From: Candidatus Thalassarchaeaceae archaeon
GTDB taxonomy: Archaea; Thermoplasmatota; Poseidoniia; Poseidoniales; Thalassarchaeaceae
Reading direction: 5' to 3'
NCBI GenBank assembly: GCA_045568235.1
Contig: JBJLBJ010000026.1
Coordinates: 2,103-66,102, forward strand
DNA length: 64,000 bases
Position numbers and translations under genes: made by a program. The notes under the pieces were generated by a model that did not search any database, was not told where the DNA came from, and worked only from the letters and a program-made list of their open reading frames with translations. Each line of letters opens with the position of its first letter. Within the stretch, counting starts at the first letter, position 1. This document shows, piece after piece, positions 12,789-50,390 of the stretch.

Positions 12789-12831
12789 ATTATCACGTAT
12801 ATATTAATGCCCATGTAAATAGTATCTAACT

Positions 12832-13959: not shown

Positions 13960-14280
13960 ATTTGGCCGATATATTGGTACAATTTCATCTTCTCGGTTAA
14001 CAATATATCTAGATGTTCATAATATTATAAATCCAAGTATCAAAAAGATGAGTAATATTAATGTTGATCAAGAAAGATAAATTAGTACACTATCAAAACA
14101 GGTAATAATAATTATATCAAAATTTATTAATTTAAATAATTTATTTACATCAATTTTTTTAAAAATTCTTATTTTTATAGTATTACGGAGTCTTTTATGT
14201 TCATACTATATAAAATAAATAAACAATAGAGTCTATAAGTGTTACACTTTCTCGTAGAAACCCGGAGTGTGTGTATCACA

Positions 14281-17508: not shown

Positions 17509-17547
17509 ATTTTTGAAAACTAGTTTACTTCAAAGATTTACATAAAG

Positions 17548-17578
17548 CACCACGGGGGGGAAAATCCCCGCCGTGGTG
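17548..17578 (+). terminator. GC-rich intercistronic stem-loop followed by a T6 tract, between the SBP gene and the permease gene
   Basis: caccacggggggg-aaaa-tccccgccgtggtg forms a stem of about 13-14 bp with one mismatch. It is the most GC-rich short element I noticed in this AT-rich window. T6 lies at 17594-17599, and a GGTGA SD plus ATG follow at 17612. Confidence 0.45.
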
Positions 17579-17611
17579 TCTTCTAACTCAATATTTTTTG
17601 GTGACTAGATA

Positions 17612-22284: not shown

Positions 22285-22293
22285 GGAATTAAT

Positions 22294-23013
22294 ATGTCAA
22301 AAATACTTGAAGTAACTGGGTTAGAAGGAGGATATGATACTGTCCAGATTTTGCATGGTATTGATTTGTATGTCAATGAAGGTGAATTTGTAACTATAAT
22401 AGGGCCAAATGGTTGTGGAAAATCAACCTTTATTAAAGTAATTTTTGGTATTGCTACACACTACAGTGGTGATGTATTGTATAATAATGAATCAATCACC
22501 AATTGGCGAACGGATCAGTTAGTAAATAACGGAATTTCCTATGTTCCTCAAGTTGACAATGTATTCCCTTCATTATCTATTTTTGAAAATTTACAGATGG
22601 GAGGTAATAATTTACCAACTAAGGTACTAAATGAGAGAATAGAGGAAGCATTGATCATGTTTCCAGATTTAAAAACAAGAATACATGATCTTGCTGCTTC
22701 ATTATCAGGAGGTGAAAGACAAATGTTAGCAATCTCAAGAGCATTGATTTCAAAACCAAAATTTCTTCTTTTAGATGAGCCAACAGCTGCATTATCTCCA
22801 TTGTATCAATCTCAAATTATTGAGAAAATAGATAAATTAAGGGATACAGGAATTACCATATTGATAGTTGAACAAAATGCCCGACTCTCTCTTGCTCGTT
22901 CTGATAGAGGATATATTTTTGCGAACGGTAAAGTAGTGCATACAGGAAAGGCAACAGATATTCTCAATGACCCCGAAATAGGTGAATACTTTTTAGGGAA
23001 TAAATCAGACTAA
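22294..23013 (+). CDS. livF: ABC transporter ATP-binding protein, LivF type
   Basis: 239 aa. Motifs are [25 protein letters not shown] and a YFLG tail. A GAGGA SD lies upstream. Confidence 0.9.
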   Translation: MSKILEVTGLEGGYDTVQILHGIDLYVNEGEFVTIIGPNGCGKSTFIKVIFGIATHYSGDVLYNNESITNWRTDQLVNNGISYVPQVDNVFPSLSIFENLQMGGNNLPTKVLNERIEEALIMFPDLKTRIHDLAASLSGGERQMLAISRALISKPKFLLLDEPTAALSPLYQSQIIEKIDKLRDTGITILIVEQNARLSLARSDRGYIFANGKVVHTGKATDILNDPEIGEYFLGNKSD

Positions 23014-24553: not shown

Positions 24554-24684
24554 TAGAAGTTTTTTTTACTAAATTTTATTACAAGATATCATTTATCTTT
24601 CCAGTGGAAATAAAGGGGTTACATTCGGTATCCAATTTGATTATGTACCTCCCCTCTAGTTCAGCAAAGCCCGGAGGACAATTG

Positions 24685-34349: not shown

Positions 34350-37300
34350 ATGTTTAGACCTAATCTCGTTGATTCTATAATTAGTTTGACAATGTGCTTC
34401 TTGATGATTGTTGCTCCTTTAACCGCGTTATCTTCAAATTATGAAGAGACGGCCTTGGATGAAGAAACAAGGAAGTACTATACTATAGGATCATTAAATA
34501 TGCCGGGTTTCCAATCTGGATCAATTTACTCAAATGATACAATTTCTGTTGGGGACCAATATGCATGTGCTGTATCAAATGGAGATGTATTATGTTGGGG
34601 CAGAAATTACTATGGAACAATAGGATATATACATACTCCAGGACAAGGCTTACAATATGGTAGCGATACTAACAAAGCACACCCTACTAATGCCAATTCT
34701 CTATATTCCCATTATGGATACTTTGTAGAAGTAGTTGCTGGAGCACAATCGACATGCGCGTTAAACACCGAAGGTGATGTTTACTGTTGGGGTGGAAACG
34801 CATATGGTCAATTAGGAAATGGAGATAATGATGTATCCGATAATACCGCCCAAGACCGAGAGATAATTACACCAAGATCGGTTCTTCTTCCAGAAAATAC
34901 ATCTGCGATTTCTATTTCTTCTTCAGAGAGACAGCACAAATGTGCAATATTGAATAATTCAGAAACTGTATGCTGGGGTCAAAATAACTGGGGGCAATTA
35001 GGTGCTGGATGGACTTGTGATGAGGATGAAGATAGCTGTACAGAAATTAATACCGATAACAATTATTGGGAATACACGGGGACTTCATTTCCTCAAGTTG
35101 TAGACTTCCCCGAAAATAAATCTGCTATTTCTGTTGATGCTGGTGATAGTTTTACTTGTGCAATTACTGAAGACCATTCAATTTACTGTTGGGGTCAAAA
35201 TAACTGGGGGCAACTCGGACAAGGGAATTATAATTCTCTAAGCTCCCCTGAATTAGTCGAATTACCAGGAGATAGAGAAGCAGGTGCTATCGCTCTTGCC
35301 AAAGAAAGTGTCTGTGCAATTTCAATGGATCAAAATGTCTATTGTTGGGGCAGGGGTTCCATCGGACAACTTGGTAATGGTAATAATCAGACTAAAACTA
35401 CTCCAACCTTAGTTATACTGGAAGAAGGCGATAATCCAGTATCCATAACCGCAGGTGGTGCTTTTTATTGTTTAATTTTAGATACCGGGCAATCTAAATG
35501 TTGGGGAGAGAATTGGCATGGGGGATTAGGAGATGGAGGGTCTTTGGATCAATGGGGAAATGGAATGTATCAACTATATCCTTTCAATGTAACAGGCAAC
35601 CACTCATTTTCTGGAATAGAATCGGGACTTCAGAATACATGCGCAATCAAGACTAATGGTTCTGCTTATTGCTGGGGAAGGCCATATGAAGGAGCCATAG
35701 GAGATGGATCAAGACTCATGACAACACAGAAAAATTGGCCATCTAGAGTTGGCACTTCTACGAACCCACTCTTTACAGACGCTTCTGAATTAGATCATGA
35801 TGATGATGGAATAATTACTATTTTTGACTCCAACCCATACATGTGTAGTTCTGGTTTTTATCAAGTAGAAAATATATGTATTGAAGTCCCTGCGGGGTCG
35901 TATTCTGTAAATGGTATCCAATATTTATGTGATATTGGAACTTATCAACCTCAATCTGGCCAAGATTCCTGTTTAGAAGCCGATCCGGGCCATTATGTTA
36001 ATGTGATAAATTCTTCAAATCAAGACGAATGTCTTGCAGGAACACATCAACCAAATTCAGCACAAGGTGAATGTATAGGAAATTCTCCCGGATATTATTC
36101 TTTAAATGGTGCTGATCAACAAATTGGTTGCCCTACTGGTTCTTATCAACCATCTGCGAATAGTACAGATTGTATACCCACAGATCCTGGATATTTTACC
36201 AACTCTATTGGCTCTAGTTCTCAAACCGCCTGTCCGGCCGGTTCTTATCAACCATATTCAAGTCAAATTACTTGTATTCAAGCAAGTATGGGTTATTTTG
36301 TAGCTTCCTCAGGTTCAAACAGCCAAGAAATGTGTACTTTAGGAAACTATTCAGATTCTTTAGGGCAATTTGAATGTACATTAGCTTCTCCAGGATATTA
36401 CGTCTCTGTAGATGGTTCAAGCAGCCAAGAGGCATGCGAATCAGGAACTTATCAAACCCTACAAGGACAAACAGATTGTATGTATGCATCTGCAGGTTAT
36501 TATGTCCCTTCTAATGGCTCTTCACAACAAATTTCTTGCCCTGAAGGCAGTTTTCAGCCTGCAGGCGGAAGTAGTTCATGTATTCTAGCAGGCTCAGGAT
36601 TTTATGTTTCTGATTTAGGTGCAACAGAGCAATTACAATGTCAACAAGGGACTTTTTCTTCTGAAGAGGGTCAAGAAGCATGCACTCCTGCAGCGCCAGG
36701 ATTCTTTGTAGATACTGATGGTGCAACTGCGCCATCGCCTTGTCCTGCTGGTCAATACCAAGATTCCGAAGGATCTGGATCTTGTGTAGATTCTCCGCCA
36801 GGATATGTAACAAGTGCAGATGGTTCTTCTACAACATCTCCTTGTCAACCGGGGACATATGCAGTGGCTGGCCAATCTTCATGCGTGGATGCAGATCCTG
36901 GAAATTTTGTATCTGATTCAGCACAATCATCTCAACAACTTTGTGAACAAGGAACATACCAACCTGAATCAGGACAATCTTCTTGTTTATTGTCACAACC
37001 TGGAAATTTTGTCGATAAATACGGGGCAACTGAACAAACACCTTGTGATGAAGGAACATATCAAACAGGTCAAAATAAATTAGGATGCATGAATGCAGAT
37101 CCTGGAAATTTTGTTCCTTCTACAGGAAGATCATATCAGAATAGTTGTGAAAAAGGACAATATCAATCAGAAGCAGGTCAATCTGAATGTTTAATGGCAG
37201 ATCCAGGAAATTTTGTACCTTCATCAGGCGCAGACAAACAATTCCCTTGCTCGCCCGGTAGTTATCAACCAGCATCAGGTCAATCTAATTGTGAAATGGC

Positions 37301-37586
37301 CTCTGAAGATCATTTCGTAGGAGAATCAGGAGCAACCGAACAAACACCATGTTCTTCGGATGATGTACAACCTAATACAGGAGCCTTGAAATGCCTCAAA
37401 GGCCCAAGTACATTTGGTGACTATTTACCAATTCTAATAATTCCTTTACTCATTGTTGCTTCTGCTTTATTTTACAAATATAGAAAGAAGACAGATGGAG
37501 TTGCAACTAAAAAGGGTAGAAATGATAAATGGGGAGAGAAAACAATAGATTATGTTCCTAAGACCATAGGAAGAAAGAGGAAATAA
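34350..37586 (+). CDS. giant cell-surface protein: signal/TM, RCC1-repeat beta-propeller, 15x 34-aa Cys repeats (ephrin-receptor-like/GCC2-GCC3-like), C-terminal TM anchor
   Basis: 1078 aa. There are seven or so (V/I)(Y/L)CWG.N..GQLG repeats. These are followed by repeats of C..G.YQ...GQ..C..A.PG.FV...G...Q. The C-terminus has YLPILIIPLLIVASALFY followed by a basic tail. Confidence 0.85.
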   Translation: MFRPNLVDSIISLTMCFLMIVAPLTALSSNYEETALDEETRKYYTIGSLNMPGFQSGSIYSNDTISVGDQYACAVSNGDVLCWGRNYYGTIGYIHTPGQGLQYGSDTNKAHPTNANSLYSHYGYFVEVVAGAQSTCALNTEGDVYCWGGNAYGQLGNGDNDVSDNTAQDREIITPRSVLLPENTSAISISSSERQHKCAILNNSETVCWGQNNWGQLGAGWTCDEDEDSCTEINTDNNYWEYTGTSFPQVVDFPENKSAISVDAGDSFTCAITEDHSIYCWGQNNWGQLGQGNYNSLSSPELVELPGDREAGAIALAKESVCAISMDQNVYCWGRGSIGQLGNGNNQTKTTPTLVILEEGDNPVSITAGGAFYCLILDTGQSKCWGENWHGGLGDGGSLDQWGNGMYQLYPFNVTGNHSFSGIESGLQNTCAIKTNGSAYCWGRPYEGAIGDGSRLMTTQKNWPSRVGTSTNPLFTDASELDHDDDGIITIFDSNPYMCSSGFYQVENICIEVPAGSYSVNGIQYLCDIGTYQPQSGQDSCLEADPGHYVNVINSSNQDECLAGTHQPNSAQGECIGNSPGYYSLNGADQQIGCPTGSYQPSANSTDCIPTDPGYFTNSIGSSSQTACPAGSYQPYSSQITCIQASMGYFVASSGSNSQEMCTLGNYSDSLGQFECTLASPGYYVSVDGSSSQEACESGTYQTLQGQTDCMYASAGYYVPSNGSSQQISCPEGSFQPAGGSSSCILAGSGFYVSDLGATEQLQCQQGTFSSEEGQEACTPAAPGFFVDTDGATAPSPCPAGQYQDSEGSGSCVDSPPGYVTSADGSSTTSPCQPGTYAVAGQSSCVDADPGNFVSDSAQSSQQLCEQGTYQPESGQSSCLLSQPGNFVDKYGATEQTPCDEGTYQTGQNKLGCMNADPGNFVPSTGRSYQNSCEKGQYQSEAGQSECLMADPGNFVPSSGADKQFPCSPGSYQPASGQSNCEMASEDHFVGESGATEQTPCSSDDVQPNTGALKCLKGPSTFGDYLPILIIPLLIVASALFYKYRKKTDGVATKKGRNDKWGEKTIDYVPKTIGRKRK
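35844..37397 (+). repeat. ~15 tandem 102-bp (34-aa) coding repeats
   Basis: Unit example: CPAGSYQPYSSQIT-CIQASMGYFVASSGSNSQEM. The repeats are diverged at the DNA level. They generate the many spurious out-of-frame and antisense ORFs in the track (36106-37083). Confidence 0.8.
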
Positions 37587-37617: not shown

Positions 37618-38658
37618 ATGCGCGACTACCCTGGAGAAAGAATAGATTTTCGTAGTGATACAGTTACTAGACCTGTTCAGGCAATGAGAGACGCCATGTC
37701 AACCGCAGAAGTAGGCGATGATGTTCTCGGTGACGATCCTACGGTTATTGAACTACAGAATCGTATTGCAAGTATGTTAGGAAAAGAAGCAGCAATATTT
37801 GTTCCTTCAGGAACTATGTCAAATGCAATTGCAATCAAAACTCATACAAATCCTGGTGATGAAATAATTGCACATGAGAAAAGTCATATTTACCGATATG
37901 AAGGAGGAGGATATGCTATGCTATCGGGTTGTTCCGTAGCCCTTGTTGGAGGCGCACATGGCATCATGTCTGCAGATTCTGTCAAAAAAGCAATTAGGAA
38001 AGTAGAAGGTAGTCAAGCACATTATCCGAATGGATCATTAGTTTGTGTAGAAAATCCTCCTATGTATGGAGGGACATTTTATTCCCAGGAAGAATTGGAC
38101 GAGATATGCGATGTTGCACATGCCAATAATTGCAAAGCTCATTTGGATGGAGCTAGAATTTTTAATGCCGCTATAGCAAGTGGAACAGATGTTGCACGAA
38201 TGGTAGAAAAATTTGATACTGTATCAGTATGCCTTTCTAAAGGCCTAGGAGCACCAATTGGCTCAGTTTTAGTTGGTGATAAAAATACAATCAATGAAGC
38301 ACATAGGTGGAGAAAAATGTTTGGCGGAGGAATGCGTCAAGTAGGAATTATAGCAGCAGCAGGATTATATGTTCTTGACAATAATATTGAAAGAATTAAA
38401 GAAGATCATTTACGCGCCAAATATTTGGCTGAAAAAATAAATTCAATGAAAAATTATTCTGTAAATTTAGAGATCACTAAGACAAATATAATTTTCATTA
38501 AATGTATTGAAGACAGTCATGAAGTAGTTAAAAAATTGTCCAATGAAGGAATAGACGTTTCATCTATTGACGACTCTACTATACGCATAGTAATTCATCT
38601 ACATATTACAGATGAAGATATAGAAAATACTATCATTGCGTTTTCTAATACACATTGA
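37618..38658 (+). CDS. ltaE: low-specificity L-threonine aldolase
   Basis: The ORF is open from TTG 37606, with ATG at 37618. IDFRSDTVTRP, VGDDVLGDDPTV..L and FVPSGTMSN are the conserved threonine aldolase N-terminal blocks. The PLP-Lys region is CLSKGLGAP. Confidence 0.85.
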   Translation: MRDYPGERIDFRSDTVTRPVQAMRDAMSTAEVGDDVLGDDPTVIELQNRIASMLGKEAAIFVPSGTMSNAIAIKTHTNPGDEIIAHEKSHIYRYEGGGYAMLSGCSVALVGGAHGIMSADSVKKAIRKVEGSQAHYPNGSLVCVENPPMYGGTFYSQEELDEICDVAHANNCKAHLDGARIFNAAIASGTDVARMVEKFDTVSVCLSKGLGAPIGSVLVGDKNTINEAHRWRKMFGGGMRQVGIIAAAGLYVLDNNIERIKEDHLRAKYLAEKINSMKNYSVNLEITKTNIIFIKCIEDSHEVVKKLSNEGIDVSSIDDSTIRIVIHLHITDEDIENTIIAFSNTH

Positions 38659-38698
38659 GACGGAAGTATTCAAAATCTATCTTCCCCTCATCATAATT

Positions 38699-39646
38699 AT
38701 GAGGGCCATTATATCGTTCTTGGCAGTTGCATTTATATTGACTCCAGTTGTATCTATTGCCACAGATTCATCGAATATAGAAACATGGGAAAATGCAAGA
38801 TATAAGCAAAATTCAGGTACACTTGGAGGAATTTCAATATCTTTATCCAATAATTCCTTAGTTCATGATTCTACGATGAATATTGAAGATTTTCCAACCA
38901 TCATCGAGACTTACACTGCAACTTGGTGTGAAAACTGTGTGATGGTTGAACAAAAAAGAAATGAAGCCATAGGCAATAACAGTGCAACAGTGATACATTA
39001 TCACAGACACTATTATGAAACCCAAGATCCATTTGGAGATAATAGTACAGAAAATAGATGGGAATTAAATTATGGTGCATCTTCAACAAATTCTCTTGGG
39101 GCTTCAAGATTAGCTCCTACAACCGTCATCGACGGTGAACGAATGCACCCCGGCCATCGTCCAAAAACCAGTACTTTGGAGAATGATTTTATCACTTCCA
39201 TCTCTGTAGGTTCTACTGCACCTCTTTATGGGAATATTAGTCTATCAGTAACTAAAAATGATTTCGCAACTCAAGATATTGAAAAATCCTCTATATTTTC
39301 CTGGTCTACATCTACTTTGATGCCTATTTGTGCTGATGATTGTCGAAATGCTGTTTCAACATCAGCATGGCTATTATTCGTTGAAGATGTGGCATATTTC
39401 CCAGAGGGATCTAATGATTTAGAGTACTATCACAATGTCCTGCATCATGTGATTTTACTTGAGGAATTAGATGGTTCAATGAATTACTCTTATCCTTCTG
39501 CATGGGATGATGATGATATGAATGTAATATTAATTGTAGATTGGGTTGAAGAAAATAATAGCAATAATTTCTTTCCAGGGCCTTCTATGATTTTAACCAT
39601 ATTTTGTCTTTTAATTTCTTCACTGGTTTACTCAAAAAAGAACTAA
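38699..39646 (+). CDS. secreted, C-terminally anchored protein with thioredoxin-like WCxxC motif
   Basis: ATG 38699 gives MRAIISFLAVAFILTPVVSIA (signal). TYTATWCENCVMVEQ is a CxxC in a Trx-like context. The C-terminal TM is MILTIFCLLISSLVY-SKKN. Confidence 0.5.
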   Translation: MRAIISFLAVAFILTPVVSIATDSSNIETWENARYKQNSGTLGGISISLSNNSLVHDSTMNIEDFPTIIETYTATWCENCVMVEQKRNEAIGNNSATVIHYHRHYYETQDPFGDNSTENRWELNYGASSTNSLGASRLAPTTVIDGERMHPGHRPKTSTLENDFITSISVGSTAPLYGNISLSVTKNDFATQDIEKSSIFSWSTSTLMPICADDCRNAVSTSAWLLFVEDVAYFPEGSNDLEYYHNVLHHVILLEELDGSMNYSYPSAWDDDDMNVILIVDWVEENNSNNFFPGPSMILTIFCLLISSLVYSKKN

Positions 39647-39705: not shown

Positions 39706-42700
39706 ATGCTCGGTGATGTGATGTTGTTAAGAGAGAATTACTCTGTTACTAACGAACTAGTCTCTGAAGGCAACCTTTCTGAGTGGTTAAAAGAGCACAT
39801 CAAATGGCAAGCAATTAGTCCAAATTCTATACCTGAAGAAAGGAAAAATAAGATAATGATAATTTATCCTTCCGAAGAATCAAGAACACAGTCTTTATCT
39901 GAATTAAGTCTTGAAGGTTTTGCATTCGATAGGAAACTTCATCATACAATAAATTCATTATTAATCTCATTATTAGCAGATTTCAGATTTCCAAGATTAT
40001 TACCTGTAAAGGAAGAGTTTAGTATTATTTTACACGAAGAATGTAGAAAAGCAGCTAAAAAATTATCATTTCCTATAATAAATCCTATTCCTGAAATGGA
40101 GTGGGGTAGAGGAAAAACAACTGCATTAGCTACATTACATGAATATCTTTCGAATGAAAATAATGTTGAATCATGGAACGGACCAGGTCTGACCTCTTTT
40201 AGAAAAATACTGAAGAACCTTGAGCAAAAAACAGGAAGGACACATCCAGATATGGCAATAAAAAGAATTATTGATAGATTATCGACCTCCGATAAACCAT
40301 TTTCTTTGATTGATGTTGAAGGAATAATAATGTTAAATCATCCTCCTGGGTTGTCTAAATCTCATCAAGAATTATTATTATCCATATCTAATCACTGCCC
40401 CATTCACCAATTAGTGTATCCTGGAAATTTTAGACTTGGACACCATGGTTTTTCATTAATCGATAAACATCCCATAAATTCCTCTAATGAGTTACCTAAA
40501 TGGATTCCTTTGCATGATATTGAGATTAAAAAACAACAGTCTAATGTTTCAAGATACATCCTTCAAAGAGAAGATCATTCTTTTGATTCTGCTATTGCTC
40601 TTACACACCAATTTCTCAAAAAAGATTCTAAGTCAACCGTCATAATTGTTGACCCTTCTTTAGATTCAAATATTTCTAGATGGAAAAGATTGGTTGAAAA
40701 TATTGGTTTATCGATGAAAGAAAATAATAAATCAATCACCAGCGATTCCTACGGGCATTGGCTTAAACAGTTAATTACATTAGGTCATGGTGCAAATAGT
40801 TTCTCTTTAGAATCCTTAAGAACTATCGCTCTCCAAGAAATCATATCTCCTTTTGAATCAAACATAACTCACCCAACAAACTCTGAAATTATGTCGATTC
40901 CAGATTTACAATTGTTGACTAATTTAGCCAGGAGTGAGCATATCTTAGGTGGCCCAGGGGCTCTCAGGAGATGGTTAGAATCCCTTTCCAGACCTTCAAA
41001 TTCTGAAATTGATGAGATTAAGAAGGAGTCAACACAGTGGTGGCTGTTGAATCTTGCTAAATCCCTCCAATCACTACTCAGAGAAGAAGATATTTTAGCC
41101 TTGAAGGAAAAAAACCTACTTACAGGATGTCATTCAAAAATTCTATTACCATTGAATGAATCAAGTATTGATGGCGATAAATGGATATTAAATCGATTCA
41201 AATCATCCAATAAGTCGCTATCCTCTGAGTATATGGACGATTCTGTAGGCAAATCTCTTGTTATCCAAACACTTCTAACATCTCATCAAGAATTAAGAAA
41301 TATGCAATTCAATTTGAAACATAACTATCCAAAGAGTGGGGCAGATTGGGTTGAAGAATATCTAACTTTGATTAATTCTGTTTCACTACCAGATAACCAA
41401 CTAAAAAGTGGTTCTAGATTAAGAATACTTACTCCCGATCAAGCAATTGGTTGTTCGGCCGATTTAATCATTTTAGCAAATTTATCTAGTTCATCATGGG
41501 ATATGAGAGTTTCTAAGTTACCATTTATGGGAGAAGAAGAAAGACATAAATTGAATTTGCTGAGGCCGGATGGACCGATTAGAAAAGCTAGACATTTCCT
41601 AAATCACTTATTATTTGCTGGAAAAGAGACTATAATTCTAGACCCAAGTTTAGATGACTCAGCCCCTCCCACAGCCCCAATCAGAGAATGGATCTTATCG
41701 AATGAAAATATAGAAGAATTAATATTAGAACTCAATCCAACTAGTCCAAGAGATATTCGCCAGTTAGATGGTGATAAATTAATAAAAGGTATTGAGACAC
41801 AAAAATCACCAATTAATCCTAGTTCGATATCCATTCCTCTTGATGTTCAATTACAACGTGAGCGAGAAAGAAGACAACCGGAAATAGTAGATGATAATCA
41901 CTACTTATCGTTTGAATCACGAGATCATATTTTTTATCTTGATTATTCCGATTTATCTAGAAAAACTCCTAATGGGAAAACAATACCTAGAGAATTTTCT
42001 TCATGGCCAGTAATCGGAGGTATTACTAAAGAGGGAAAAAGAACTCCTACTATAGACCCTAGGCCATTCACTCCGACATCGACAGGAGTTAATGTCAGTG
42101 ATTCACGACATGGCCATGGAACTGGAGTAGAACAAAAGGTAACAATCTGGTCAGCTAGTAGATTACATGATTGGCTAAAATGCCCAAGAAGTGGTTGGTT
42201 GAATAGAGGACTCAGGGCTGACCAAGAAGAACTACAATCTGAAGATTTAGATTTACGAACTCATGGCAACCTTCTTCATTTTATACACCATGATATTTTA
42301 TGCCACATATTAAGTATGAAAATAGGTGAAGAGTTTGATAGTATTAATAATAAAAGAGAAAATATCAGTGTTGGAAACTCATGTCTATCAAAAAATGAAG
42401 TTATGAAAGTAGCATTAGAATCACTAGATTCAAGAGCACCTTGGTTAGATCGTACAGATGCGGTTTCTATCCATAGACTTCAGGTTCTTACTGGAATGAA
42501 CAGAGATCAGTATAATGATTGGCTTGCAAATCCTATTCCTGTAGAACCCAAAGGAAGAATTGGAACAATAGTAGAGGCTGAATTTAGTATATCTGATGGA
42601 ATGCCAATAGGTATTGAATGGGATATTAATGATCATAATGAGAATGGGATAGAGATTCATATCCCATCAGAGATCACCAGTCCTGATATGCAAAAACTAC

Positions 42701-43290
42701 CTCCAATAAAAGTAAGAGGTCAAATAGATAGAGTCGATCAAGTACCATTTGATAAAGATGGTAAAATATGGTTAAATAAAGATGGAGATAATAGCATAGC
42801 TCCTCTAAAATTAACTGATAGTGATTGGAAACCAAAAAGATTGATAATTATAAGAGATTTGAAAACTTCCGATTCTAAATCATCAAAAGAGAGGCATAAT
42901 GTTGGACTTTTAGAAGAATTACAATTAGCCATTTATGCCAGAGCATGGGAAATTTCACACCCCGGCGATCTTGTAGTTGGTGTTGGAATATCACTTTTTA
43001 GTCATAACACATCTCATAATCTAGAAACATCTAATGTCTTTCCACATATCAATAAATTAGATATTGGTATCATTTCAAGAATAACAGAAGACTTATACAG
43101 ATTTCCAAATGAAGATAATAGCCCCAGTAGTGATCAATTTAGAGCATGGCTAACTCACCGACTGTCAGTTTCTTTGGGAGTTGCTAATAATGCTACATTA
43201 GGAAAGGTACACCCTACTCCTTCAAAGAAAGTTTGTACTTATTGTTCAGTGAAACAAATATGTGATGTTAAGATGGAGGACAATTTTTGA
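39706..43290 (+). CDS. AddB-like subunit: degenerate helicase-like N-terminal region plus C-terminal PD-(D/E)XK nuclease with 4-Cys (Fe-S) cluster motif
   Basis: 1194 aa. I see no canonical Walker A. C-terminal nuclease blocks are SASRLHDWLKCPRSGW (Cys1), GQIDRVDQ (motif II Asp), IIIRDLKTS (DxK), LQLAIYARAW (QxxxY) and CTYCSVKQIC (CxxCx5C). It is translationally coupled to the next gene. Confidence 0.65.
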   Translation: MLGDVMLLRENYSVTNELVSEGNLSEWLKEHIKWQAISPNSIPEERKNKIMIIYPSEESRTQSLSELSLEGFAFDRKLHHTINSLLISLLADFRFPRLLPVKEEFSIILHEECRKAAKKLSFPIINPIPEMEWGRGKTTALATLHEYLSNENNVESWNGPGLTSFRKILKNLEQKTGRTHPDMAIKRIIDRLSTSDKPFSLIDVEGIIMLNHPPGLSKSHQELLLSISNHCPIHQLVYPGNFRLGHHGFSLIDKHPINSSNELPKWIPLHDIEIKKQQSNVSRYILQREDHSFDSAIALTHQFLKKDSKSTVIIVDPSLDSNISRWKRLVENIGLSMKENNKSITSDSYGHWLKQLITLGHGANSFSLESLRTIALQEIISPFESNITHPTNSEIMSIPDLQLLTNLARSEHILGGPGALRRWLESLSRPSNSEIDEIKKESTQWWLLNLAKSLQSLLREEDILALKEKNLLTGCHSKILLPLNESSIDGDKWILNRFKSSNKSLSSEYMDDSVGKSLVIQTLLTSHQELRNMQFNLKHNYPKSGADWVEEYLTLINSVSLPDNQLKSGSRLRILTPDQAIGCSADLIILANLSSSSWDMRVSKLPFMGEEERHKLNLLRPDGPIRKARHFLNHLLFAGKETIILDPSLDDSAPPTAPIREWILSNENIEELILELNPTSPRDIRQLDGDKLIKGIETQKSPINPSSISIPLDVQLQRERERRQPEIVDDNHYLSFESRDHIFYLDYSDLSRKTPNGKTIPREFSSWPVIGGITKEGKRTPTIDPRPFTPTSTGVNVSDSRHGHGTGVEQKVTIWSASRLHDWLKCPRSGWLNRGLRADQEELQSEDLDLRTHGNLLHFIHHDILCHILSMKIGEEFDSINNKRENISVGNSCLSKNEVMKVALESLDSRAPWLDRTDAVSIHRLQVLTGMNRDQYNDWLANPIPVEPKGRIGTIVEAEFSISDGMPIGIEWDINDHNENGIEIHIPSEITSPDMQKLPPIKVRGQIDRVDQVPFDKDGKIWLNKDGDNSIAPLKLTDSDWKPKRLIIIRDLKTSDSKSSKERHNVGLLEELQLAIYARAWEISHPGDLVVGVGISLFSHNTSHNLETSNVFPHINKLDIGIISRITEDLYRFPNEDNSPSSDQFRAWLTHRLSVSLGVANNATLGKVHPTPSKKVCTYCSVKQICDVKMEDNF

Positions 43291-46200
43291 TGCGTCTAAA
43301 TACAGCTCAACGTTTAGCCCTGAATCTTGATTCACATATTGTGGTCGATGCGGGTGCAGGAACTGGTAAAACAAGTACTATTATTGATAGGGTAATAGAA
43401 CATTACCTCACAGAAGATCAACGTGCAACTAGAATTTTACCTATGCCAGAAAGACCATCGAAATTAGAAGGTGGTCTATTGGTTTCTCCTTCATCAGAAA
43501 CCACCGATCTTCGTAAATGGAAAGGACTTCTTCCTGGCGAGGTTGTTTTACTTACATTTACCAATAGAGCATCAGATGAAATGCGTGATAGATTAAGGAA
43601 ACGTATTTCAAAATTAAAACCAGGGCCAGTAAGTGACGATGGAATAACTAGAACAGATCCTAGAATCCGCCATCAGGGATTCAATGAACAACTTTTGACA
43701 CTCCTAGAAGATGCTCCAATTGGAACTATAGACGCATTTTTCAATCAATTAATATCTCCATATAGGGGCTATTTAGGAGATTTTAATACTAAAGATATAA
43801 TTTCTGATACTAACCGAATACTCTTAGTAGAATCTGCAATTAATACTCTTTGGAGACTTCCAAACTCAATTAATTTAATCGGAGAGTCAGTTGATGCAGG
43901 AATACCTTCAGAGATAGCTTCACAAGTGCTAGATGCTAGAGATAGTATTTCTAGACATTATTCAAGTAGAAGAAGTGCAACAAACGTCCTAAGAAGTTTA
44001 GTCTATAAATCAATATTCATCGAGGAAAGCACAAGACTGATTACTAATAAAGATGGAAAAGTCAATCCAGAATCACTTAAAGAAAGAATTATTATATCTA
44101 TAGATCAAGAAGATTTAACAAATTTTTCAAGAGAACTGTTTGCTTTGGTGACAAAATACTGTGATTTCATTAAAGAAAACATTACTGTTCTAGCACCAGA
44201 AGGAGTATTTTCTGATACAAGAATAGCATGTCTTGATTCTCTTTGTGAGTCACAACCTCCTACTGATAAGTGGAGACAATTAGTTCGACTTGGTCATTTG
44301 TTACTTTGCATTACTTCTGATGCATCAATAATGAGTAACAAACCATCTATTTTTCCAAATTCTAAGTTGCCTTCAGATACATGGGAAAGTGGAATTAGAA
44401 ATTATTCTGAAATTGAAAATAAAACAACAAAAGAAACCGTTAAAAATGGTCTGAAAGAACTATCTTCTCAGATCAAAAATCTATGGTATAAAAAGATTGG
44501 AAAACTTATTCTACACTTCACTCAAGTTACACTAATGCTTGATAATTCTAATCCTCCTATGACTTCTGCGGATTGGCAACATCCTTTACAACCACTTCCA
44601 TTTCCTCTTCCTAGCAGATTATCAAACGATTCAAAAATTAATAAATTTCATTTCACATTACAGGCAGAAGTAGATAATCTAGATAATTTAAAATTAGTAC
44701 ATGATGGCTTTTTAGGAATCTTAAAAAACCTGAAGAAAAATGAAGAAACACATGATTATGTTGATGTCCAAAGATTAACTGGAGATTTACTACTTGCAAA
44801 TTGTCCCAACGTCTGTCGAACCTTTTATCCACAATCAATACAAGATGCTTTGAATTCTCTAAATACGGAAACATGGCGTGATGATCATATAAATGAAGCA
44901 TTTTCTATATTAGAAAAATTAGAAAATAATGCAAAAAGAGCTAGTAATTATCCAGAAAAACTATCTACAATTCGTTTAGACTTAACCCAACGTTATGATC
45001 TATTGAAAAAAATTAGACGTCGCTATCGCGCTTTCATCATAGACGAAGCACAAGACAACTCTCCTTTACAATGGAGACTTCTTTCTAGACTATGGGGTGA
45101 GCGGGCTATTCAAGATGACGATCCTGAAGTACCAAATACACCATGGCAACCAACCATTTGCTATGTCGGTGATGTAAAGCAAAGTATCTACGCATTTAGA
45201 CAAGCAGAAGTTACAGGATTTCTGGAGTATTCGAGAATCTTAAGGGATATTAATGAACATGAATTTTCTAGTGTAAAGGAATTAACCCGTAAACCACCTT
45301 TACGTAAGTCAGATTCAAGCCGAGATCCAAGAAATTCTTACAATTTGAATATAGTAAAGGGCATTGAAGTAACTGAAGAAGGCGGTCGAAATTTAATACC
45401 ATGGATACCATTTGATTTATCTGACCCTCATCTTCCTATACCGACTTCACAAGAGGTAGAACATAGAAAACAAGGGCTAATTAGTTTACAGATTAATTAC
45501 AGAACTGATGGAGGTTTACTAAATGTAATGAATGAATGGTGGCAAGACATCTTCAATGAAAAACATAGACACTTACCTAATGGTAATTTCTATGCAAAAC
45601 CACAGCGTCTATTTCCAAGTAGAGACAAAATAAATGCTCAAGGGTCATTAGAATGGATATGTCCTTTAGGAATAGGGGGCGAAAAAAACCCTCCTACTGA
45701 TTTAAGAATACCACTTGATCCATTTGGGCCTGGAAAACCAGATTCTATTGAAAGACAGAGTATGATGATAGCACTACGAATAAAAAAATTAATTGAAGGT
45801 AAATCAATAAAAATTCTCTCATCTGAAGGGAATTGGATAGAATTACCGGCGGAAGAACCCGTAGAACCTAGTGAAATAATGATACTATTACCAAGTAGAA
45901 GTAAAATTAGAGATGTTATAATCCGTCATTTGCACAATTTAGGAATTCCTGCACAGGCTGATCGCGAGGGAGGATTACTTGATCGTCCAGCAGCTCATAC
46001 AATAGAAGGTTTATTGCAATTTATTGCACGACCATTTTCCAGACATCATGCTTCTTGGGTCGCAAGGTCTTCTTTGATCGGCTTCGATGATACTAAACTA
46101 CAAGAATACCTTTTTTACTCTAGAAAAGAAGAGAACTTACTAATCAGATTAAGAGATTTTGCAATCAATGAGAGGCAAAAAGAATTAGTACAAAGATGGA

Positions 46201-48221
46201 TAGATCTTTCCTCAGCAGGACGTATAGTGGATCTTTTAGAAGAAACAGTAGATAGATCGGATATTCTAATGGCATTTCCAGATATAGTCTCGCGTCAAGA
46301 CATAGAACAAATAATAGATATTATCAGAAATTTATCTAGAGAAGTTGGAGGGGATTCAATTGTTTTAGCAGATAAAATACGTGATTTAAGAGAAAGTGGC
46401 GGCAATTCTCTGGAAGCAGTGACCATCCCTCCAAGTGACGCAGTCAGAGTAATGACTATACATGGGTCAAAAGGACTACAAGCCAAAGTAGTTATTCTTG
46501 CAGATTTATTTTCTGGGCGTCAAACTAATATGACTATAGATGATAGAAATAGACTCATTGTAACGCCGGAGCTTTTCGCAGGTAATCCAAAACCTTGGTC
46601 CAATGAATTATCTCCATTATCCGCTCTATGGAAACATGTCAGGAAGATTTACCAAGCTCGTAAAAGTGCTGAATCACGCAGACTTCTTTATGTTGGAGCA
46701 ACAAGAGCACAAAACAAACTCATTATAGTAGGATCAACAAAAGGTACTAAATGGGAGGATGGAAAAGGAATAAAATTTCCTTGGACATATTCAGAATCAT
46801 TACCACAGTTAGGTGAAATGTGGATAGAATCATTACGACAAGGATCAGCTAATAGGAATGAGACAGATTCGCCATGGCTCGATCAATCAGATGTTATATC
46901 AGGTGAAATAAATATTAAAACACGCGGATATCGTGAATTTAACCCACATTCATTGTTTTCTAAGGGATTTATAGGCCATTCTAAGTCACCAAATGGATTA
47001 ACATTATTGCACCATCCTGATTGTCTGATTTCAGAAAATAAACCTTCTTCGATTTCAACCCCTTTAAGTAGAATAGAAAATTTAGATGCATTTGCTAGAA
47101 ACTCTATATCAAAACACACAACCTCTTCAATTTCTCCAAGGACAGACTATTCTGCAAGATTGAGGATTGCACCAAGTAGAATCTCAATTATAGAAAAATG
47201 TCCAAGAAGACATTGGTATGAGACAATAGGCGGCTTATCTCCTAAACCCATCATCCCATCAAAGTCTGTAAATTCACCAAATGGACTCCCAGGAGGAATT
47301 GACCCTGCTCTTTTTGGTACAATAGTACATAGGATAATCGAGATAGGTATAGGTAATCCCGGACCAAAAGAAGAATATCCAACGACTCCATTACCTGAAT
47401 CATGGATAAAAAGAGAAATTGATTTAATTGATAGTCCTGAAATACATAATACAGTTTTTGATGAGTTATTGCCCTTAGGAGTAGATCGAGAAAGCACTAT
47501 TCACTTAGTCAACTTAATGATTAATAGGATAAAATCCGGACCTCTTGGTAAACTATCCAGAGGTGAAATCTTTGATGGGCACAGAGTTGAAGGATTAAGA
47601 ACTGAAATGCCATTTAATATTACTAAAAAAATAAATTTAAACGGCCTAGTTCGTAGCCGATGGACTCCTGAGGGATATGAGCCACTATCTAAAATTGAAT
47701 TTGCTAATATTGAAATGAGTGGCCTCATTGATCTTGTACTTTGCACTGTTATTAATGGAAAATCAACTATTCGCCCCATAGATCTCAAAACAGAGGAAGC
47801 GAGTAAATTGATAGATCAAAAAACCGATGGGTTGATTGAAGCATTAGGAGAGAGCACAACTGAACCAAAATGCCAAGCGGAAATAGAAATTTTATTGGAA
47901 CATAGAATGCAACAAGCCCTTTACTATATAGCACTTAAAAATCTTGAAAATGAAAGATCAAAATACGGTTATCCTTCAAGAAAAGTCCTTCCTCCAGCAA
48001 TTTTGATTGGCGTTACAGGAAGATTAGTAGTGTATCCGGATGATATGTTGCAAAATGCATTAGATGATTTAGAAGAAAATTTGATATTAGCAGCCAAAAT
48101 GTCTCTTGGCTCTAATGTATTACTTTCTAACTTCCCTCCTTTAGAATCAAGTAAATCTGAGACATGTCATAAATGTCCCTTTAATCAAGGAGAATTACCT
48201 ATTTGTGGCCCGTTAAATTAA
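43290..48221 (+). CDS. AddA/RecB-like SF1 UvrD-family helicase fused to a Cas4/AddB-type 4-Cys PD-(D/E)XK nuclease
   Basis: ATG 43290 overlaps the upstream TGA (TGATG), with a GGAGGA SD 11 nt upstream. Helicase motifs are DAGAGTGKT (I), LLTFTNRAS (Ia), FIIDEAQDNSP (II), VGDVKQSIYAFRQA (III), VMTIHGSKGLQ (V) and LLYVGATRAQNKL (VI). Nuclease blocks are IIEKCPRRHWYE, GLIDLV, PIDLKT, QQALYY and CHKCPFNQGELPIC. Confidence 0.8.
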   Translation: MRLNTAQRLALNLDSHIVVDAGAGTGKTSTIIDRVIEHYLTEDQRATRILPMPERPSKLEGGLLVSPSSETTDLRKWKGLLPGEVVLLTFTNRASDEMRDRLRKRISKLKPGPVSDDGITRTDPRIRHQGFNEQLLTLLEDAPIGTIDAFFNQLISPYRGYLGDFNTKDIISDTNRILLVESAINTLWRLPNSINLIGESVDAGIPSEIASQVLDARDSISRHYSSRRSATNVLRSLVYKSIFIEESTRLITNKDGKVNPESLKERIIISIDQEDLTNFSRELFALVTKYCDFIKENITVLAPEGVFSDTRIACLDSLCESQPPTDKWRQLVRLGHLLLCITSDASIMSNKPSIFPNSKLPSDTWESGIRNYSEIENKTTKETVKNGLKELSSQIKNLWYKKIGKLILHFTQVTLMLDNSNPPMTSADWQHPLQPLPFPLPSRLSNDSKINKFHFTLQAEVDNLDNLKLVHDGFLGILKNLKKNEETHDYVDVQRLTGDLLLANCPNVCRTFYPQSIQDALNSLNTETWRDDHINEAFSILEKLENNAKRASNYPEKLSTIRLDLTQRYDLLKKIRRRYRAFIIDEAQDNSPLQWRLLSRLWGERAIQDDDPEVPNTPWQPTICYVGDVKQSIYAFRQAEVTGFLEYSRILRDINEHEFSSVKELTRKPPLRKSDSSRDPRNSYNLNIVKGIEVTEEGGRNLIPWIPFDLSDPHLPIPTSQEVEHRKQGLISLQINYRTDGGLLNVMNEWWQDIFNEKHRHLPNGNFYAKPQRLFPSRDKINAQGSLEWICPLGIGGEKNPPTDLRIPLDPFGPGKPDSIERQSMMIALRIKKLIEGKSIKILSSEGNWIELPAEEPVEPSEIMILLPSRSKIRDVIIRHLHNLGIPAQADREGGLLDRPAAHTIEGLLQFIARPFSRHHASWVARSSLIGFDDTKLQEYLFYSRKEENLLIRLRDFAINERQKELVQRWIDLSSAGRIVDLLEETVDRSDILMAFPDIVSRQDIEQIIDIIRNLSREVGGDSIVLADKIRDLRESGGNSLEAVTIPPSDAVRVMTIHGSKGLQAKVVILADLFSGRQTNMTIDDRNRLIVTPELFAGNPKPWSNELSPLSALWKHVRKIYQARKSAESRRLLYVGATRAQNKLIIVGSTKGTKWEDGKGIKFPWTYSESLPQLGEMWIESLRQGSANRNETDSPWLDQSDVISGEINIKTRGYREFNPHSLFSKGFIGHSKSPNGLTLLHHPDCLISENKPSSISTPLSRIENLDAFARNSISKHTTSSISPRTDYSARLRIAPSRISIIEKCPRRHWYETIGGLSPKPIIPSKSVNSPNGLPGGIDPALFGTIVHRIIEIGIGNPGPKEEYPTTPLPESWIKREIDLIDSPEIHNTVFDELLPLGVDRESTIHLVNLMINRIKSGPLGKLSRGEIFDGHRVEGLRTEMPFNITKKINLNGLVRSRWTPEGYEPLSKIEFANIEMSGLIDLVLCTVINGKSTIRPIDLKTEEASKLIDQKTDGLIEALGESTTEPKCQAEIEILLEHRMQQALYYIALKNLENERSKYGYPSRKVLPPAILIGVTGRLVVYPDDMLQNALDDLEENLILAAKMSLGSNVLLSNFPPLESSKSETCHKCPFNQGELPICGPLN

Positions 48222-49739: not shown

Positions 49740-50390
49740 GTGGAACATATCGAGACAGACATGAACGAAGGCGAAAATGGAATCAATTTTCCTGAACCAA
49801 ACGCTCCATCCTCAGTAAATTTAGAAGAGGATTTGAGAATAGCAAATGATAGATTAGAAAAATTATATATTGCATATAATGAATCATCAAAGCTAAATGA
49901 AGAATTACAAGCCATCATTGAAGTTTTAGAAAAAGAGGCTGTAAACAGTGAAATTGAGAAAGAAGGAATTCAAGCACTCCTAGATGAGAAAGATGAGCGT
50001 TTGAGGGCAATGGAATTAGAGCGTGCCAAGGCAAACAAAACTATAGAACATCTTGAACCAAAATTAGAAAAAACAGAAGAAATGTATTCCAGAGAAAAGG
50101 CAAGGCTAGGACGTGTTTTTGAAGTAGCTGAAGAACTTGATGAAGCTTTACAAACAGCAACTACTGAAATGTCTGCGAGAGATGACTGGTATGTACAGCA
50201 TATGCAATTATTTGAAAATCTCAATGAAGCCATTCAAACCAGATATGAGATGATAGACAGTGCAGTACAAGCAATGGCTGAATTCCGTCAAAAGCAAGAT
50301 ACATTCAAAGATCGTATGGACGAAGCTCTTGATGCTGTTAAAGAACAAGCTTCGGAAGAAAAATCATCAAACGCTGACGAAACAGAATAA
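49740..50390 (+). CDS. acidic coiled-coil protein, unknown function
   Basis: 216 aa from GTG 49740, or 209 aa from ATG 49761. It has heptad-like E/K/L-rich sequence throughout and no TM. Confidence 0.5.
   Translation: MEHIETDMNEGENGINFPEPNAPSSVNLEEDLRIANDRLEKLYIAYNESSKLNEELQAIIEVLEKEAVNSEIEKEGIQALLDEKDERLRAMELERAKANKTIEHLEPKLEKTEEMYSREKARLGRVFEVAEELDEALQTATTEMSARDDWYVQHMQLFENLNEAIQTRYEMIDSAVQAMAEFRQKQDTFKDRMDEALDAVKEQASEEKSSNADETE

Follow-up and report, generated by a model that had tools for sequence, protein, structure and literature searches.

Organization of the locus

The window analysed here, a 64-kb stretch of DNA from a Candidatus Thalassarchaeaceae archaeon, carries two large, adjoining and co-oriented genes, hereafter named B and A. 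Translation of the ORFs assigns to gene B (39706..43290, + strand) a predicted AddB/AdnA-like partner subunit of 1194 aa and to gene A (43290..48221, + strand) a predicted AddA/AdnB/RecB-like motor-nuclease subunit of 1643 aa counted from its ATG. The stop codon of B (TGA) and the start codon of A (ATG) have base 43290 in common (TGATG, 43288-43292), and a GGAGGA element (43275-43280) is separated from this ATG by 9 nt, which together make up a putative translational coupling signal (43275..43292, + strand). When 84 related loci were examined, both ORFs were recovered in 76, with A directly following B in each of them, and the most frequent stop-to-stop frame offset between B and A was compatible with a short overlap. 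An addB-like gene adjoining a co-oriented addA-like gene is the operon arrangement of AddAB, and the gene pair, its translational coupling and the addB-then-addA order, all proposed in an initial annotation of this DNA, are borne out by the ORFs, the TGATG overlap and the related loci. The description of the pair as oversized holds for A but not for B, whose length is near that of Bacillus subtilis AddB (PDB chains of ~1150 residues).

The surroundings are those of a genuine archaeal chromosome, as had been assumed: MCM, GatE, archaeal L10P and FtsZ genes lie within the window, archaeal flanks are found on both sides, and GC content is uniform throughout, with no anomaly at the B-A pair. Neighborhood annotation found no restriction-modification (RM), CRISPR or toxin genes near the pair. 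A RecD-like SF1B gene was found neither in the locus nor in the rest of the 64-kb window, and the window also contains no Mre11-Rad50 or HerA-NurA genes.

Gene A encodes a predicted SF1A motor fused to a nuclease

Protein A is composed of an active-looking SF1A helicase (residue 1 to ~1155) with lineage-specific insertions, a linker, and a PD-(D/E)XK nuclease domain (~1293-1632). Its translation contains GAGTGKT, DEAQD, VGDVKQSIYAFRQA, TIHGSKGLQ, VGATRA, GLIDLV, IDLKT and QQALYY, and every motif that had been quoted for A or B was recovered in the respective protein. The Walker A motif GAGTGKT (43353..43373, + strand; residues 22-28) was detected in 72 of 75 species by a narrow regular expression and motif II, DEAQD (45042..45056, + strand; residues 585-589), in all 75, so that helicase motifs I, II and III are retained in 72-75 of the 75 species. 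The nuclease catalytic motifs (47730..47924, + strand), namely GLIDLV (D1481), IDLKT (D1498 and K1500) and QQALYY (Q1541 and Y1545), fall in invariant columns; retention of nuclease motifs II and III is evident from both the alignment and motif counts in the 75 species. Protein A thus combines, as AddA does, a complete set of SF1A motifs with a C-terminal RecB-family PD-(D/E)XK nuclease.

Profile searches point to the same class. Pfam detected UvrD-helicase (2e-32), UvrD_C (6e-15) and PDDEXK_1 (2.8e-8) domains, whereas the best NCBIfam matches, addA_Gpos (6.5e-41), addA_alphas (9e-40) and recB (2.6e-36), are all far under their cut-offs: A scores 140.2 bits against the 707.65 required by TIGR02785 and 136.9 bits against the 860.75 required by TIGR02784. 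AddA and RecB models nevertheless score A about twice as high as PcrA and UvrD models do, and the best sequence match in the PDB is an AddA chain (3u44_A, 3.4e-12), with AdnB matched weakly (E 4e-4). Our set of A homologues comprises 313 sequences.

The spacing between Walker A and DEAQD is 558 residues, in agreement with the ~560 reported in the initial annotation. The comparison made there with UvrD/PcrA does not stand, because the fair comparator is AddA/RecB, in which this spacer is already long. Relative to AddA, protein A is longer by about 400-410 residues in three insertions; by alignment offsets against 3u44_A, the first, of ~190 residues, precedes motif III, the second (~90) falls in the 2A/2B region and the third (~145) follows the helicase core. 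Pfam detected no domain in any of the three.

A phmmer search of the A nuclease domain against PDB sequences returned nothing meaningful. By Foldseek, the C-terminal model of A matches the nuclease folds of Dna2 (best match, 5ean_A, 6.9e-5), RecE, RecB, ACE1 (Cas4 family) and AddB. The Dna2 match could be taken to mean that the A-B pair acts on replication forks or processes the lagging strand or flaps, as a Dna2-like enzyme or a RecBCD-like fork-resetting machine, instead of resecting two-ended double-strand breaks (DSBs), and its conserved position ~13 kb downstream of MCM would fit such a role. However, Dna2 is only marginally ahead of the other four nucleases, with which the PD-(D/E)XK fold is all that is shared, the motor of A belongs to SF1A (UvrD-like) while that of Dna2 belongs to SF1B, and unrelated metabolic genes fill the interval between MCM and the pair. 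We consider a fork-specific role highly improbable.

Gene B encodes a putative helicase-like partner with its own nuclease

Protein B begins with an inactivated SF1-helicase-like region (~11-690), which is followed by a low-confidence linker (~700-815); a PD-(D/E)XK nuclease containing four Cys residues forms its C-terminus. The motifs KCPRSGW, IDRVD, RDLKT, QLAIY and CTYCSVKQIC are present in its translation. Full-length homologues of B number 122 in our set. The catalytic motifs of the nuclease (42727..42936, + strand), GQIDRVD (D1008), IIRDLKT (D1051 and K1053) and QLAIY (Q1073 and Y1077), occupy columns that are invariant or nearly so, and motif counts in 78 species indicate that nuclease motifs II and III are retained. 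Neither a conserved Walker A motif (GxxxxGK[ST]; 78 species) nor motif II is present in B. In the AF2 model, IIYPSEESR stands where a P-loop would be expected, in a strand-loop-helix element. We also considered GRGKTT (residues 134-139) as a vestigial Walker A motif and rejected it, since only 36 of the 78 species have it and the model shows no beta-strand ahead of it.

Sequence searches with B gave little beyond its nuclease domain, which Pfam recognizes as PDDEXK_1 (1.9e-13). The remainder of the protein had no sequence match, and a Pfam scan of the N-terminal 700 residues detected no domain. Among the NCBIfam AddB models, addB_alphas gave the sole match, which is non-significant (E 0.078) and scores 11 bits where the cut-off is 486.5. 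Nothing meaningful was found in PDB sequences by phmmer with the whole protein or with its nuclease domain, nor by hmmsearch with a 25-sequence B profile; no AddB chain was retrieved with the whole protein or the profile. Considering that A reaches 140 bits against cut-offs of 708-861 and that B has no significant addB match, sequence models do not establish orthology to bacterial AddAB.

Structural comparison was more informative. The AF2 model of B (pLDDT 74) is matched best by AddB (4cei_B, 2e-21), then by AdnA (9np6_A, 1.6e-14) and then by RecC (8b1t_C, 2.8e-12). The top five Foldseek matches are all AddB chains, with E-values from 2e-21 to 6e-20 over ~1200-1360 aligned columns; global TM-scores between B and AddB are low (0.37-0.40). 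The low-confidence stretches of the model (701-851 and 1166-1194) are where the Cys residues sit. In AddB, a nuclease domain follows an inactivated SF1 helicase-like fold, and the predicted fold of B, rather than sequence profiles, supports the assignment of B as an AddB/AdnA-class partner subunit. The earlier reading of this ORF as an AddB-like PD-(D/E)XK protein was checked by the profile searches above: its nuclease part is upheld by Pfam and its AddB part by the Foldseek fold, but not by sequence profiles.

It might be argued that A and B are independent enzymes sharing an operon, A being a stand-alone UvrD-Cas4-type protein and B a separate Cas4-like nuclease, with no AddAB-like complex between them. 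Stand-alone UvrD-Cas4 fusions are widespread, including in mesophilic archaea (PMC5704561), the first-Cys motif of the A nuclease is Cas4-like, and the A-B complex is itself a prediction. On the other hand, B and A co-occur, adjoin and overlap at stop and start (76 of 84 loci); they have diverged together and still adjoin in the 71%-GC relative L085, where identities are 25% and 27%; and the proteins matched by the fold of B, namely AddB, AdnA and RecC, never occur except as obligate partners of an SF1A motor. We consider two independent enzymes in one operon very unlikely.

Conserved Cys sites in both nuclease domains

Both nuclease domains contain candidate metal-binding Cys residues, whose coordinates had been given correctly for A and B in the initial annotation. 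In B, the putative Fe-S site has as its first Cys residue Cys826 in KCPRSGW (42181..42183, + strand), which is invariant in 25 of 25 sequences, and CPRxGW is found in 76 of 78 species. The downstream triad Cys1177-x2-Cys1180-x5-Cys1186 (43234..43263, + strand) is of the canonical AddB/Cas4 type; CxxCx5C is present in 78 of 78 species, as counted in complete B genes from GTDB loci, and is also kept in the 71%-GC relative. One Cys (C826) upstream and three (C1177, C1180 and C1186) downstream of the nuclease motifs constitute the iron-staple signature of AddB, and metal binding by B is predicted.

The site in A is different. Its first Cys, Cys1304 in KCPRRHW (47199..47201, + strand), occurs in 75 of 76 sequences and was aligned by hhalign with the Cys of CPRxGW in B. 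The C-terminal triad, Cys1626-x2-Cys1629-x9-Cys1639 (48165..48206, + strand), is non-canonical, with a CxxCx9C spacing in place of the CxxCx5C of AddB and Cas4. While C1626 and C1629 are found in 75 of 76 sequences, the fourth Cys appears in one of three places, namely C1639 (39 sequences), C1624 (21) or C1307 (14). That four candidate ligands are nevertheless retained in 74 of 76 species, with an alternative fourth ligand, points to a selected but non-canonical metal site. Comparison of the two nuclease domains by hhalign (probability 95.6%, E 1e-8, with the first-Cys motif included in the alignment) indicates that they are homologous to each other.

By analogy with the bacterial enzymes, we infer an Fe-S identity for the metal sites of A and B, and the Cys4 module of B is probably an Fe-S cluster. 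The proposal that four-Cys nucleases are present on both subunits is therefore supported by conservation (78 of 78 for B and 74 of 76 for A), but the site of A is not of the AddB/Cas4 style that had been suggested, given its CxxCx9C spacing and relocating fourth ligand. The accompanying statement that Fe-S clusters are limited to AddB-type subunits agrees with the literature, in which the motor-dead AdnA also has one (PMC13000450).

Distribution and origin of the pair

Relatives of B occur in at least 228 GTDB species genomes, and the 80 listed are without exception Marine Group II/Poseidoniales-type MAGs. Searching 1.84 billion representative proteins yielded only 269 matches to the B family, and all examined clusters that had a source name are named Euryarchaeota/Poseidoniales. 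Relatives of A and B are annotated at their sources as hypothetical proteins, PD-(D/E)XK nuclease family proteins or UvrD-helicase-domain proteins. The order MCM-GatE...B-A-M20 peptidase is conserved among relatives down to 25% identity, with housekeeping neighbors that also include PTH2 and an aminotransferase. A word-indexed search with the 71%-GC relative P0274 retrieved only itself. The B-A pair thus belongs to the ancient core of the whole order and keeps its synteny, and it is not a recent or acquired island; horizontal acquisition of the pair, which had been suggested and for which no donor is identifiable, would be an inference from parsimony.

Proteins of both families are usually found in bacteria and the best HMM matches are bacterial models, so that an archaeal contig could have received bacterial DNA by faulty assembly or binning. 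Such an artefact, a chimeric contig included, is refuted by the uniform GC content, by the archaeal flanks, by the presence of the same arrangement in single-cell genomes (AG-4xx isolates), many independent MAGs and a 1.6 Mb single-contig MAG, and by the B family being essentially confined to the Poseidoniales-type lineage.

These data also bear on whether the pair serves primarily in anti-viral or anti-plasmid defence, destroying linear invading DNA (cf. RecBCD immunity and Gabija/Hachiman-type systems) rather than repairing the chromosome. RecBCD/AddAB-type enzymes inherently degrade Chi-less linear DNA, which speaks for such a role, as do weak cross-matches of A to GajB models and the association of UvrD-Cas4-like fusions with defence contexts in bacteria and mesophilic archaea (PMC5704561). 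However, the GajB matches are generic to the UvrD core (at most 60 bits, compared with 125-140 bits for AddA/RecB) and are the only PADLOC matches of A, B matches no PADLOC model, and no relatives of B were found on IMG/VR viral contigs. In addition, the locus is a fixed part of the core in the surveyed genomes and lies among housekeeping genes, not in a variable island. Defence as the primary function appears unlikely, and the earlier suggestion of a front-line degrader of viral DNA is left with no PADLOC system match, defence neighborhood or viral homologues behind it.

A proposed DNA-end resection motor and its implications

Taken together, A and B probably constitute an AddAB/AdnAB-class heterodimeric helicase-nuclease that Marine Group II archaea (Poseidoniales and close relatives) have inherited vertically as part of their core gene set, and the pair is best read as an end-resection motor with one active motor (A) and two nucleases. 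Heterodimer formation, strand assignment, Chi-like regulation and the in vivo role are suggested by analogy with bacterial enzymes, with strand assignments taken from PMC13000450, in which AdnA, the trailing subunit, cleaves the 5' strand with a nuclease whose Fe-S cluster lies at the fork; an Fe-S cluster has also been described for AddB (PMC2887965). By this analogy, the A-B complex would bind a dsDNA end, and the single active SF1A motor of A would translocate 3'->5' on the 3'-ended strand and unwind the duplex. The 3'-ended strand may be threaded through the inactivated helicase-like domain of B, which corresponds to the Chi-scanning site in AddB and RecC, and then be cleaved by the A nuclease, whereas the displaced 5' strand would enter the B nuclease and be cleaved there. 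As in AddB and AdnA, the Cys4 (probably Fe-S) module of B would sit at the fork; the second tetra-Cys metal site, in the A nuclease domain, probably has a structural role. The reaction would leave a resected 3' tail as a substrate for recombination by RadA, with degradation of linear foreign DNA as a by-product, as with RecBCD.

Archaeal resection has been ascribed to Mre11-Rad50 and HerA-NurA (PMC7690668), and RecBCD/AddAB-type machines were stated to be 'not present in archaea' in a 2026 preprint (10.64898/2026.05.08.723854). The A-B pair would run counter to the treatment of such end processing as bacterial in reviews and recent papers. A passage of PMC2887965 cites Cromie 2009 (J Bacteriol) as suggesting that addAB was transferred 'even into the archaea'. 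We found no paper linking MGII/Poseidoniales with AddAB, RecBCD, RecB, Mre11 or Rad50, MGII genomics papers included, and the pair appears to be undescribed. The most abundant order among planktonic archaea has a very divergent AddAB/AdnAB-class pair as a conserved core locus, with a divergence so great that sequence models miss one subunit (B). If the pair is active, it raises the questions of how a bacterial-type resection motor would hand over to RadA, whether there are archaeal Chi-like sequences, and what a second metal-cluster nuclease would contribute, and it would bear on how uncultured marine archaea interact with their viruses and acquire CRISPR spacers. A bolder idea is that Marine Group II replaced or never had HerA-NurA and uses instead this deeply divergent AddAB-like motor, in which both subunits have metal-cluster nucleases and the dead-helicase subunit reads a Chi-like regulatory sequence. 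We put this forward tentatively and think it somewhat unlikely; if true, it would be the first Chi-type recombination control in Archaea and an order-wide case of bacterial-style DSB processing serving the eukaryote-like recombinase RadA.

Comparison with known systems

HerA-NurA and Mre11-Rad50 share with the A-B pair a presumed task, in which DNA ends are resected at the expense of ATP so that RadA can recombine them. The proteins are unrelated to A and B: the ATPase HerA is hexameric and FtsK-like, and the nuclease NurA is RNase-H-like. UvrD-Cas4-like fusions (Hudaiberdiev et al. 2017, PMC5704561), a family that occurs in bacteria and mesophilic archaea, resemble A in fusing a UvrD-like SF1 helicase with a Cas4-like nuclease (PF12705) that has Cys ligands. 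However, they are described as standing alone or as linked to Type III R-M or Dcm/Vsr genes, whereas A is always paired with the AddB-like B in a housekeeping context.

With respect to RecBCD, A resembles RecB, as reflected in its recB HMM match, and B resembles RecC, its third-best fold match, in having a dead-helicase architecture with no P-loop. The two systems differ in that the A-B locus and window have no RecD-like SF1B gene, and in that RecC has a nuclease-like domain that lacks both catalytic activity and a Cys cluster, while B keeps all its nuclease motifs and the Cys4 signature. Mycobacterial AdnAB (PDB 6PPJ and 9NP6) is a heterodimer of a lead motor, AdnB (cf. A), and a trailing motor-like subunit, AdnA (cf. 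B), an organization predicted for A-B as well. AdnA is the second-best fold match of B, which carries a Cys4 signature, but AdnA keeps its ATPase motifs and binds nucleotide, whereas B has neither a conserved Walker A nor motif II, and the resemblance of A to AdnB in sequence is weak.

AddAB (B. subtilis/Bacteroides type; PDB 3U44 and 4CEI) provides the best matches, both for the structure of B (AddB) and for the sequence of A (AddA models and the AddA chain). The addB-then-addA order of two genes is common to both, A shares the SF1A motor and C-terminal RecB-family nuclease, and B shares the inactive helicase-like N-terminus and the PD-(D/E)XK nuclease within C...CxxCx5C. B. subtilis AddB keeps a Walker A nucleotide-binding motif, which B lacks. 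Sequence similarity is far under equivalog cut-offs and for B not detectable, and A is ~410 residues longer than AddA. The nuclease of A also has a conserved tetra-Cys site, whereas the published Fe-S cluster is that of AddB (PMC2887965), and, unlike AddAB, the A-B pair is hosted by an archaeon.

A two-gene locus in an archaeal chromosome

Gene B (39706-43290, + strand; 1194 aa from an ATG), encoding an AddB/AdnA-like partner subunit, and gene A (43290-48221, + strand; 1643 aa from an ATG, with an in-frame TTG one codon upstream), encoding an AddA/AdnB/RecB-like motor-nuclease, were defined from the ORF listing and translation, in which all motifs and coordinates quoted in the initial annotation were found. 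The stop codon of B (TGA) and the start codon of A (ATG) overlap by base 43290, and GGAGGA at 43275-43280 precedes the A start. Considering the ORF lengths and the hundreds of full-length homologues, both are real genes and not chance ORFs. The pair had been called oversized, which holds for A but not for B, which is AddB-sized.

The window is archaeal, with genes for MCM (24604-26847), GatE (26871-28955), an archaeal L10P carrying its insertion domain, FtsZ, Trm1, PAC2, and PTH2, and its GC content is uniform (0.34-0.40), showing no shift at the pair. The closest genomes are metagenome-assembled genomes (MAGs) titled Marine Group II (MGII), Candidatus Thalassarchaeaceae or Poseidoniales, with B identity of up to 88% among the matches listed. 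Mre11, Rad50, HerA, NurA, and RadA were not found in the window by a scan covering all but a few short ORFs.

A word-indexed search with B returned 122 cluster matches, all full-length at 39-97% identity, and when 1.84 billion representative proteins were searched exhaustively with a profile, only 269 matched; all examined clusters with a source name were named Euryarchaeota, Methanobacteriota or Candidatus Poseidoniales archaeon. Scanning one genome per GTDB species revealed at least 228 B-encoding stretches, the best 80 of which all come from MAGs or single-cell genomes of MGII/Poseidoniales type, one of them a 1.6 Mb single-contig MAG. B is directly followed by A in 76 of 84 loci; at the other eight only one ORF of the pair was recovered, likely because of contig ends or a narrow motif filter. 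A conserved gene order, MCM-GatE-...-PTH2-aminotransferase-beta-eliminating lyase-(secreted protein)-B-A-M20 peptidase-...-radical SAM, extends to relatives sharing 39-47% identity and to lineages further removed. Even an archaeal relative of 71% GC (locus L085; ena:ERZ26167216 ctg495766, 3,002,195 bp; genes at 10001-18168) retains the MCM-GatE...B-A-M20 synteny and both Cys signatures, at only 25% (B) and 27% (A) identity to the window proteins, against 47% for GatE; the word-indexed search leaves its B protein as a singleton. This distribution, synteny, and divergence indicate that the pair is an ancient, vertically inherited, fast-evolving core locus. A genomic island is rejected by the conserved synteny and lineage-wide spread, and an assembly chimera by the same arrangement across many genomes. 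As the component families occur mainly in Bacteria, it is plausible that the pair reached the base of this lineage by horizontal transfer from that domain.

Several other genes in the window were also noted. Directly upstream of B, a 336-aa protein (38636-39646, +) has an N-terminal signal/TM segment, a C-terminal TM segment, a thioredoxin-like WCENC, and no Pfam match; a hypothetical gene of similar length, also without a Pfam match, occupies this position in four related loci (L001-L004). It is probably functionally unrelated to the pair. An acidic coiled-coil protein (216 aa; 49740-50390, +) shows a weak Spc7-like match, and in related loci the M20 peptidase is followed by a hypothetical gene of comparable length (204-218 aa). 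Unusually large, fused Liv-type ABC transporter components were observed at 14239-17508 (+; 1089 aa, SBP_bac_3 and two Peripla_BP_6/ANF_receptor domains) and 17612-21514 (+; 1300 aa, permease with two BPD_transp_2 domains), followed by two ATPase genes (21517-23013). A 1078-aa protein (34350-37586, +) combines RCC1 repeats (WD40_RLD, 1.6e-57) with five ephrin-receptor-like repeats; these domains are eukaryote-typical, and the protein carrying them is of archaeal surface type. Sizeable ORFs without any Pfam match (145-560 aa; 735-3817, 5098-5535, 31296-32915 on the - strand, and 52773-54455) are of the kind commonly seen in MGII genomes, which have a large lineage-specific core without annotation.

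Motor and nuclease of subunit A

A matches UvrD-helicase (2e-32), UvrD_C (6e-15), AAA_19, and PDDEXK_1 (2.8e-8, residues 1293-1632), and motifs I, II, and III are retained in 72-75 of 75 species; judged from sequence, it appears to consist of an intact SF1A motor joined to a nuclease of the RecB family. The best curated models were addA_Gpos (140 bits), addA_alphas (137), and recB (125), ahead of PcrA (77 bits) and UvrD (46-53 bits), all scores being far under the equivalog cut-offs. The best PDB sequence match was AddA (3.4e-12). AddA/RecB is the proper comparator for the spacer between Walker A and motif II, which had been measured against UvrD. Offsets in the alignment with AddA place extra residues before motif III (~190), in the 2A/2B region (~90), and past the helicase core (~145); the Pfam scan matched no domain in these three insertions.

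The model of residues 1150-1643 (pLDDT 80) matches the nuclease domains of Dna2, RecE, RecB, ACE1 (Cas4 family), and AddB (7e-5 to 7e-4), consistent with a generic RecB/Cas4-type PD-(D/E)XK fold. Profile-profile comparison showed the two nuclease domains, that of A and that of B, to be homologous (hhalign 95.6%, E 1e-8), the alignment spanning the first-Cys motif (PSRL..C.RRHW in A, SxSRL..CPRxGW in B).

Predicted fold of subunit B

Profile searches supported only part of the proposed assignment of B: the PD-(D/E)XK domain is the sole Pfam match (PDDEXK_1, 1.9e-13, C-terminal), whereas beyond it sequence methods found nothing (NCBIfam addB model, E 0.078; zero matches to PDB sequences, even with a 25-sequence profile), and AddB-likeness emerged from the predicted fold. 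In an AlphaFold2 model built on the 25-sequence B alignment (mean pLDDT 74; residues 11-690 mostly >80), Foldseek against PDB ranked five Bacillus subtilis AddB chains first, aligned over the whole length (2e-21 to 6e-20), then AdnA (1.6e-14) and RecC (2.8e-12), with AddA, UvrD, AdnB, and RecB after them. The top matches of the predicted fold are exactly the non-motor partner subunits of three bacterial end-resection machines. Global TM-scores are low (0.37-0.40), as is to be expected when a model has several domains, so the ranking carries more weight than the superposition.

No conserved Walker A was found in B, the P-loop position (strand-loop-helix) reading IIYPSEESR. A GRGKTT at residues 134-139 (40105-40122), in a region with a weak AAA_22 match under the cut-off (E 0.0015-0.007), was rejected as a helicase Walker A, since it lies off the expected position and is kept in only 36 of 78 species; it is probably not a nucleotide site. 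The nuclease motifs GxIDRVD, RDLKT, and QLAxY are invariant or nearly so.

Cysteine sites on both subunits

Cys4 nuclease domains on both subunits are supported, but the description "AddB/Cas4-style" strictly applies to B and not to A. In B, both C826 and the C-terminal triad CxxCx5C (C1177/1180/1186) are invariant, and all 78 complete genes taken from GTDB species genomes carry the triad; the spacing is the canonical AddB/Cas4 one, and Bacteroides fragilis AddB has the same pattern (PMC2887965). In A (47199-47210 and 48159-48206), C1304, C1626, and C1629 occur in 75 of 76 sequences, and the fourth ligand shifts between lineages (L005-L085) among C1639 (CxxCx9C, n=39), C1624 (CxCxxC, n=21), and C1307 (giving CPRCHW, n=14). 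All but two of the 76 sequences have at least four Cys; in L001 the A gene has lost every one and gives no PF12705 match either. Relocation of this compensatory kind provides good evolutionary evidence for selection on a putative tetra-Cys metal site in A. Its spacing is non-canonical, and both Fe-S and Zn are candidate metals.

Proposed function

The evidence best supports reading the pair as an AddAB/AdnAB-class heterodimer, in which A would be the single active motor, B a dead helicase scaffold, and each would contribute an active nuclease, one per strand. By analogy with the cluster of AddB and AdnA (PMC13000450), the Cys4 module of B may sit at the fork. We infer complex formation and strand routing; a Chi-like signal may exist, and the pair may substitute for HerA-NurA. 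The initial annotation had also suggested that the pair could act as a front-line degrader of linear viral DNA; among PADLOC models, A gave only weak generic GajB cross-matches and B matched none, the genomic context is housekeeping, and no homologues were found in the viral contigs searched, which argue against a dedicated defence role. Degradation of linear foreign DNA would be expected as a side activity of the heterodimer.

Comparison with known systems

The pair is a real, well-supported finding, and no paper mentioning these genes in MGII was found in the searchable literature. A 2026 preprint (10.64898/2026.05.08.723854) describes RecBCD/AddAB as absent from archaea; an older passage in PMC2887965, citing Cromie 2009, considers addAB transfer "even into the archaea" possible. 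UvrD-Cas4 fusions, which have the same domain architecture as A, have been noted in bacteria and mesophilic archaea, but as stand-alone or R-M-linked proteins and not as half of an AddAB-like pair (PMC5704561). By analogy, the pair probably works like AddAB/AdnAB, although in curated sequence tests A is not recognized as AddA, nor B as AddB. It differs from these systems in its archaeal host, its extreme divergence, an A subunit ~410 residues longer with a second tetra-Cys site on the nuclease of the motor subunit, and a B subunit that lacks a P-loop, in which it is closer to RecC than to AddB/AdnA, yet keeps a predicted active Fe-S-type nuclease.
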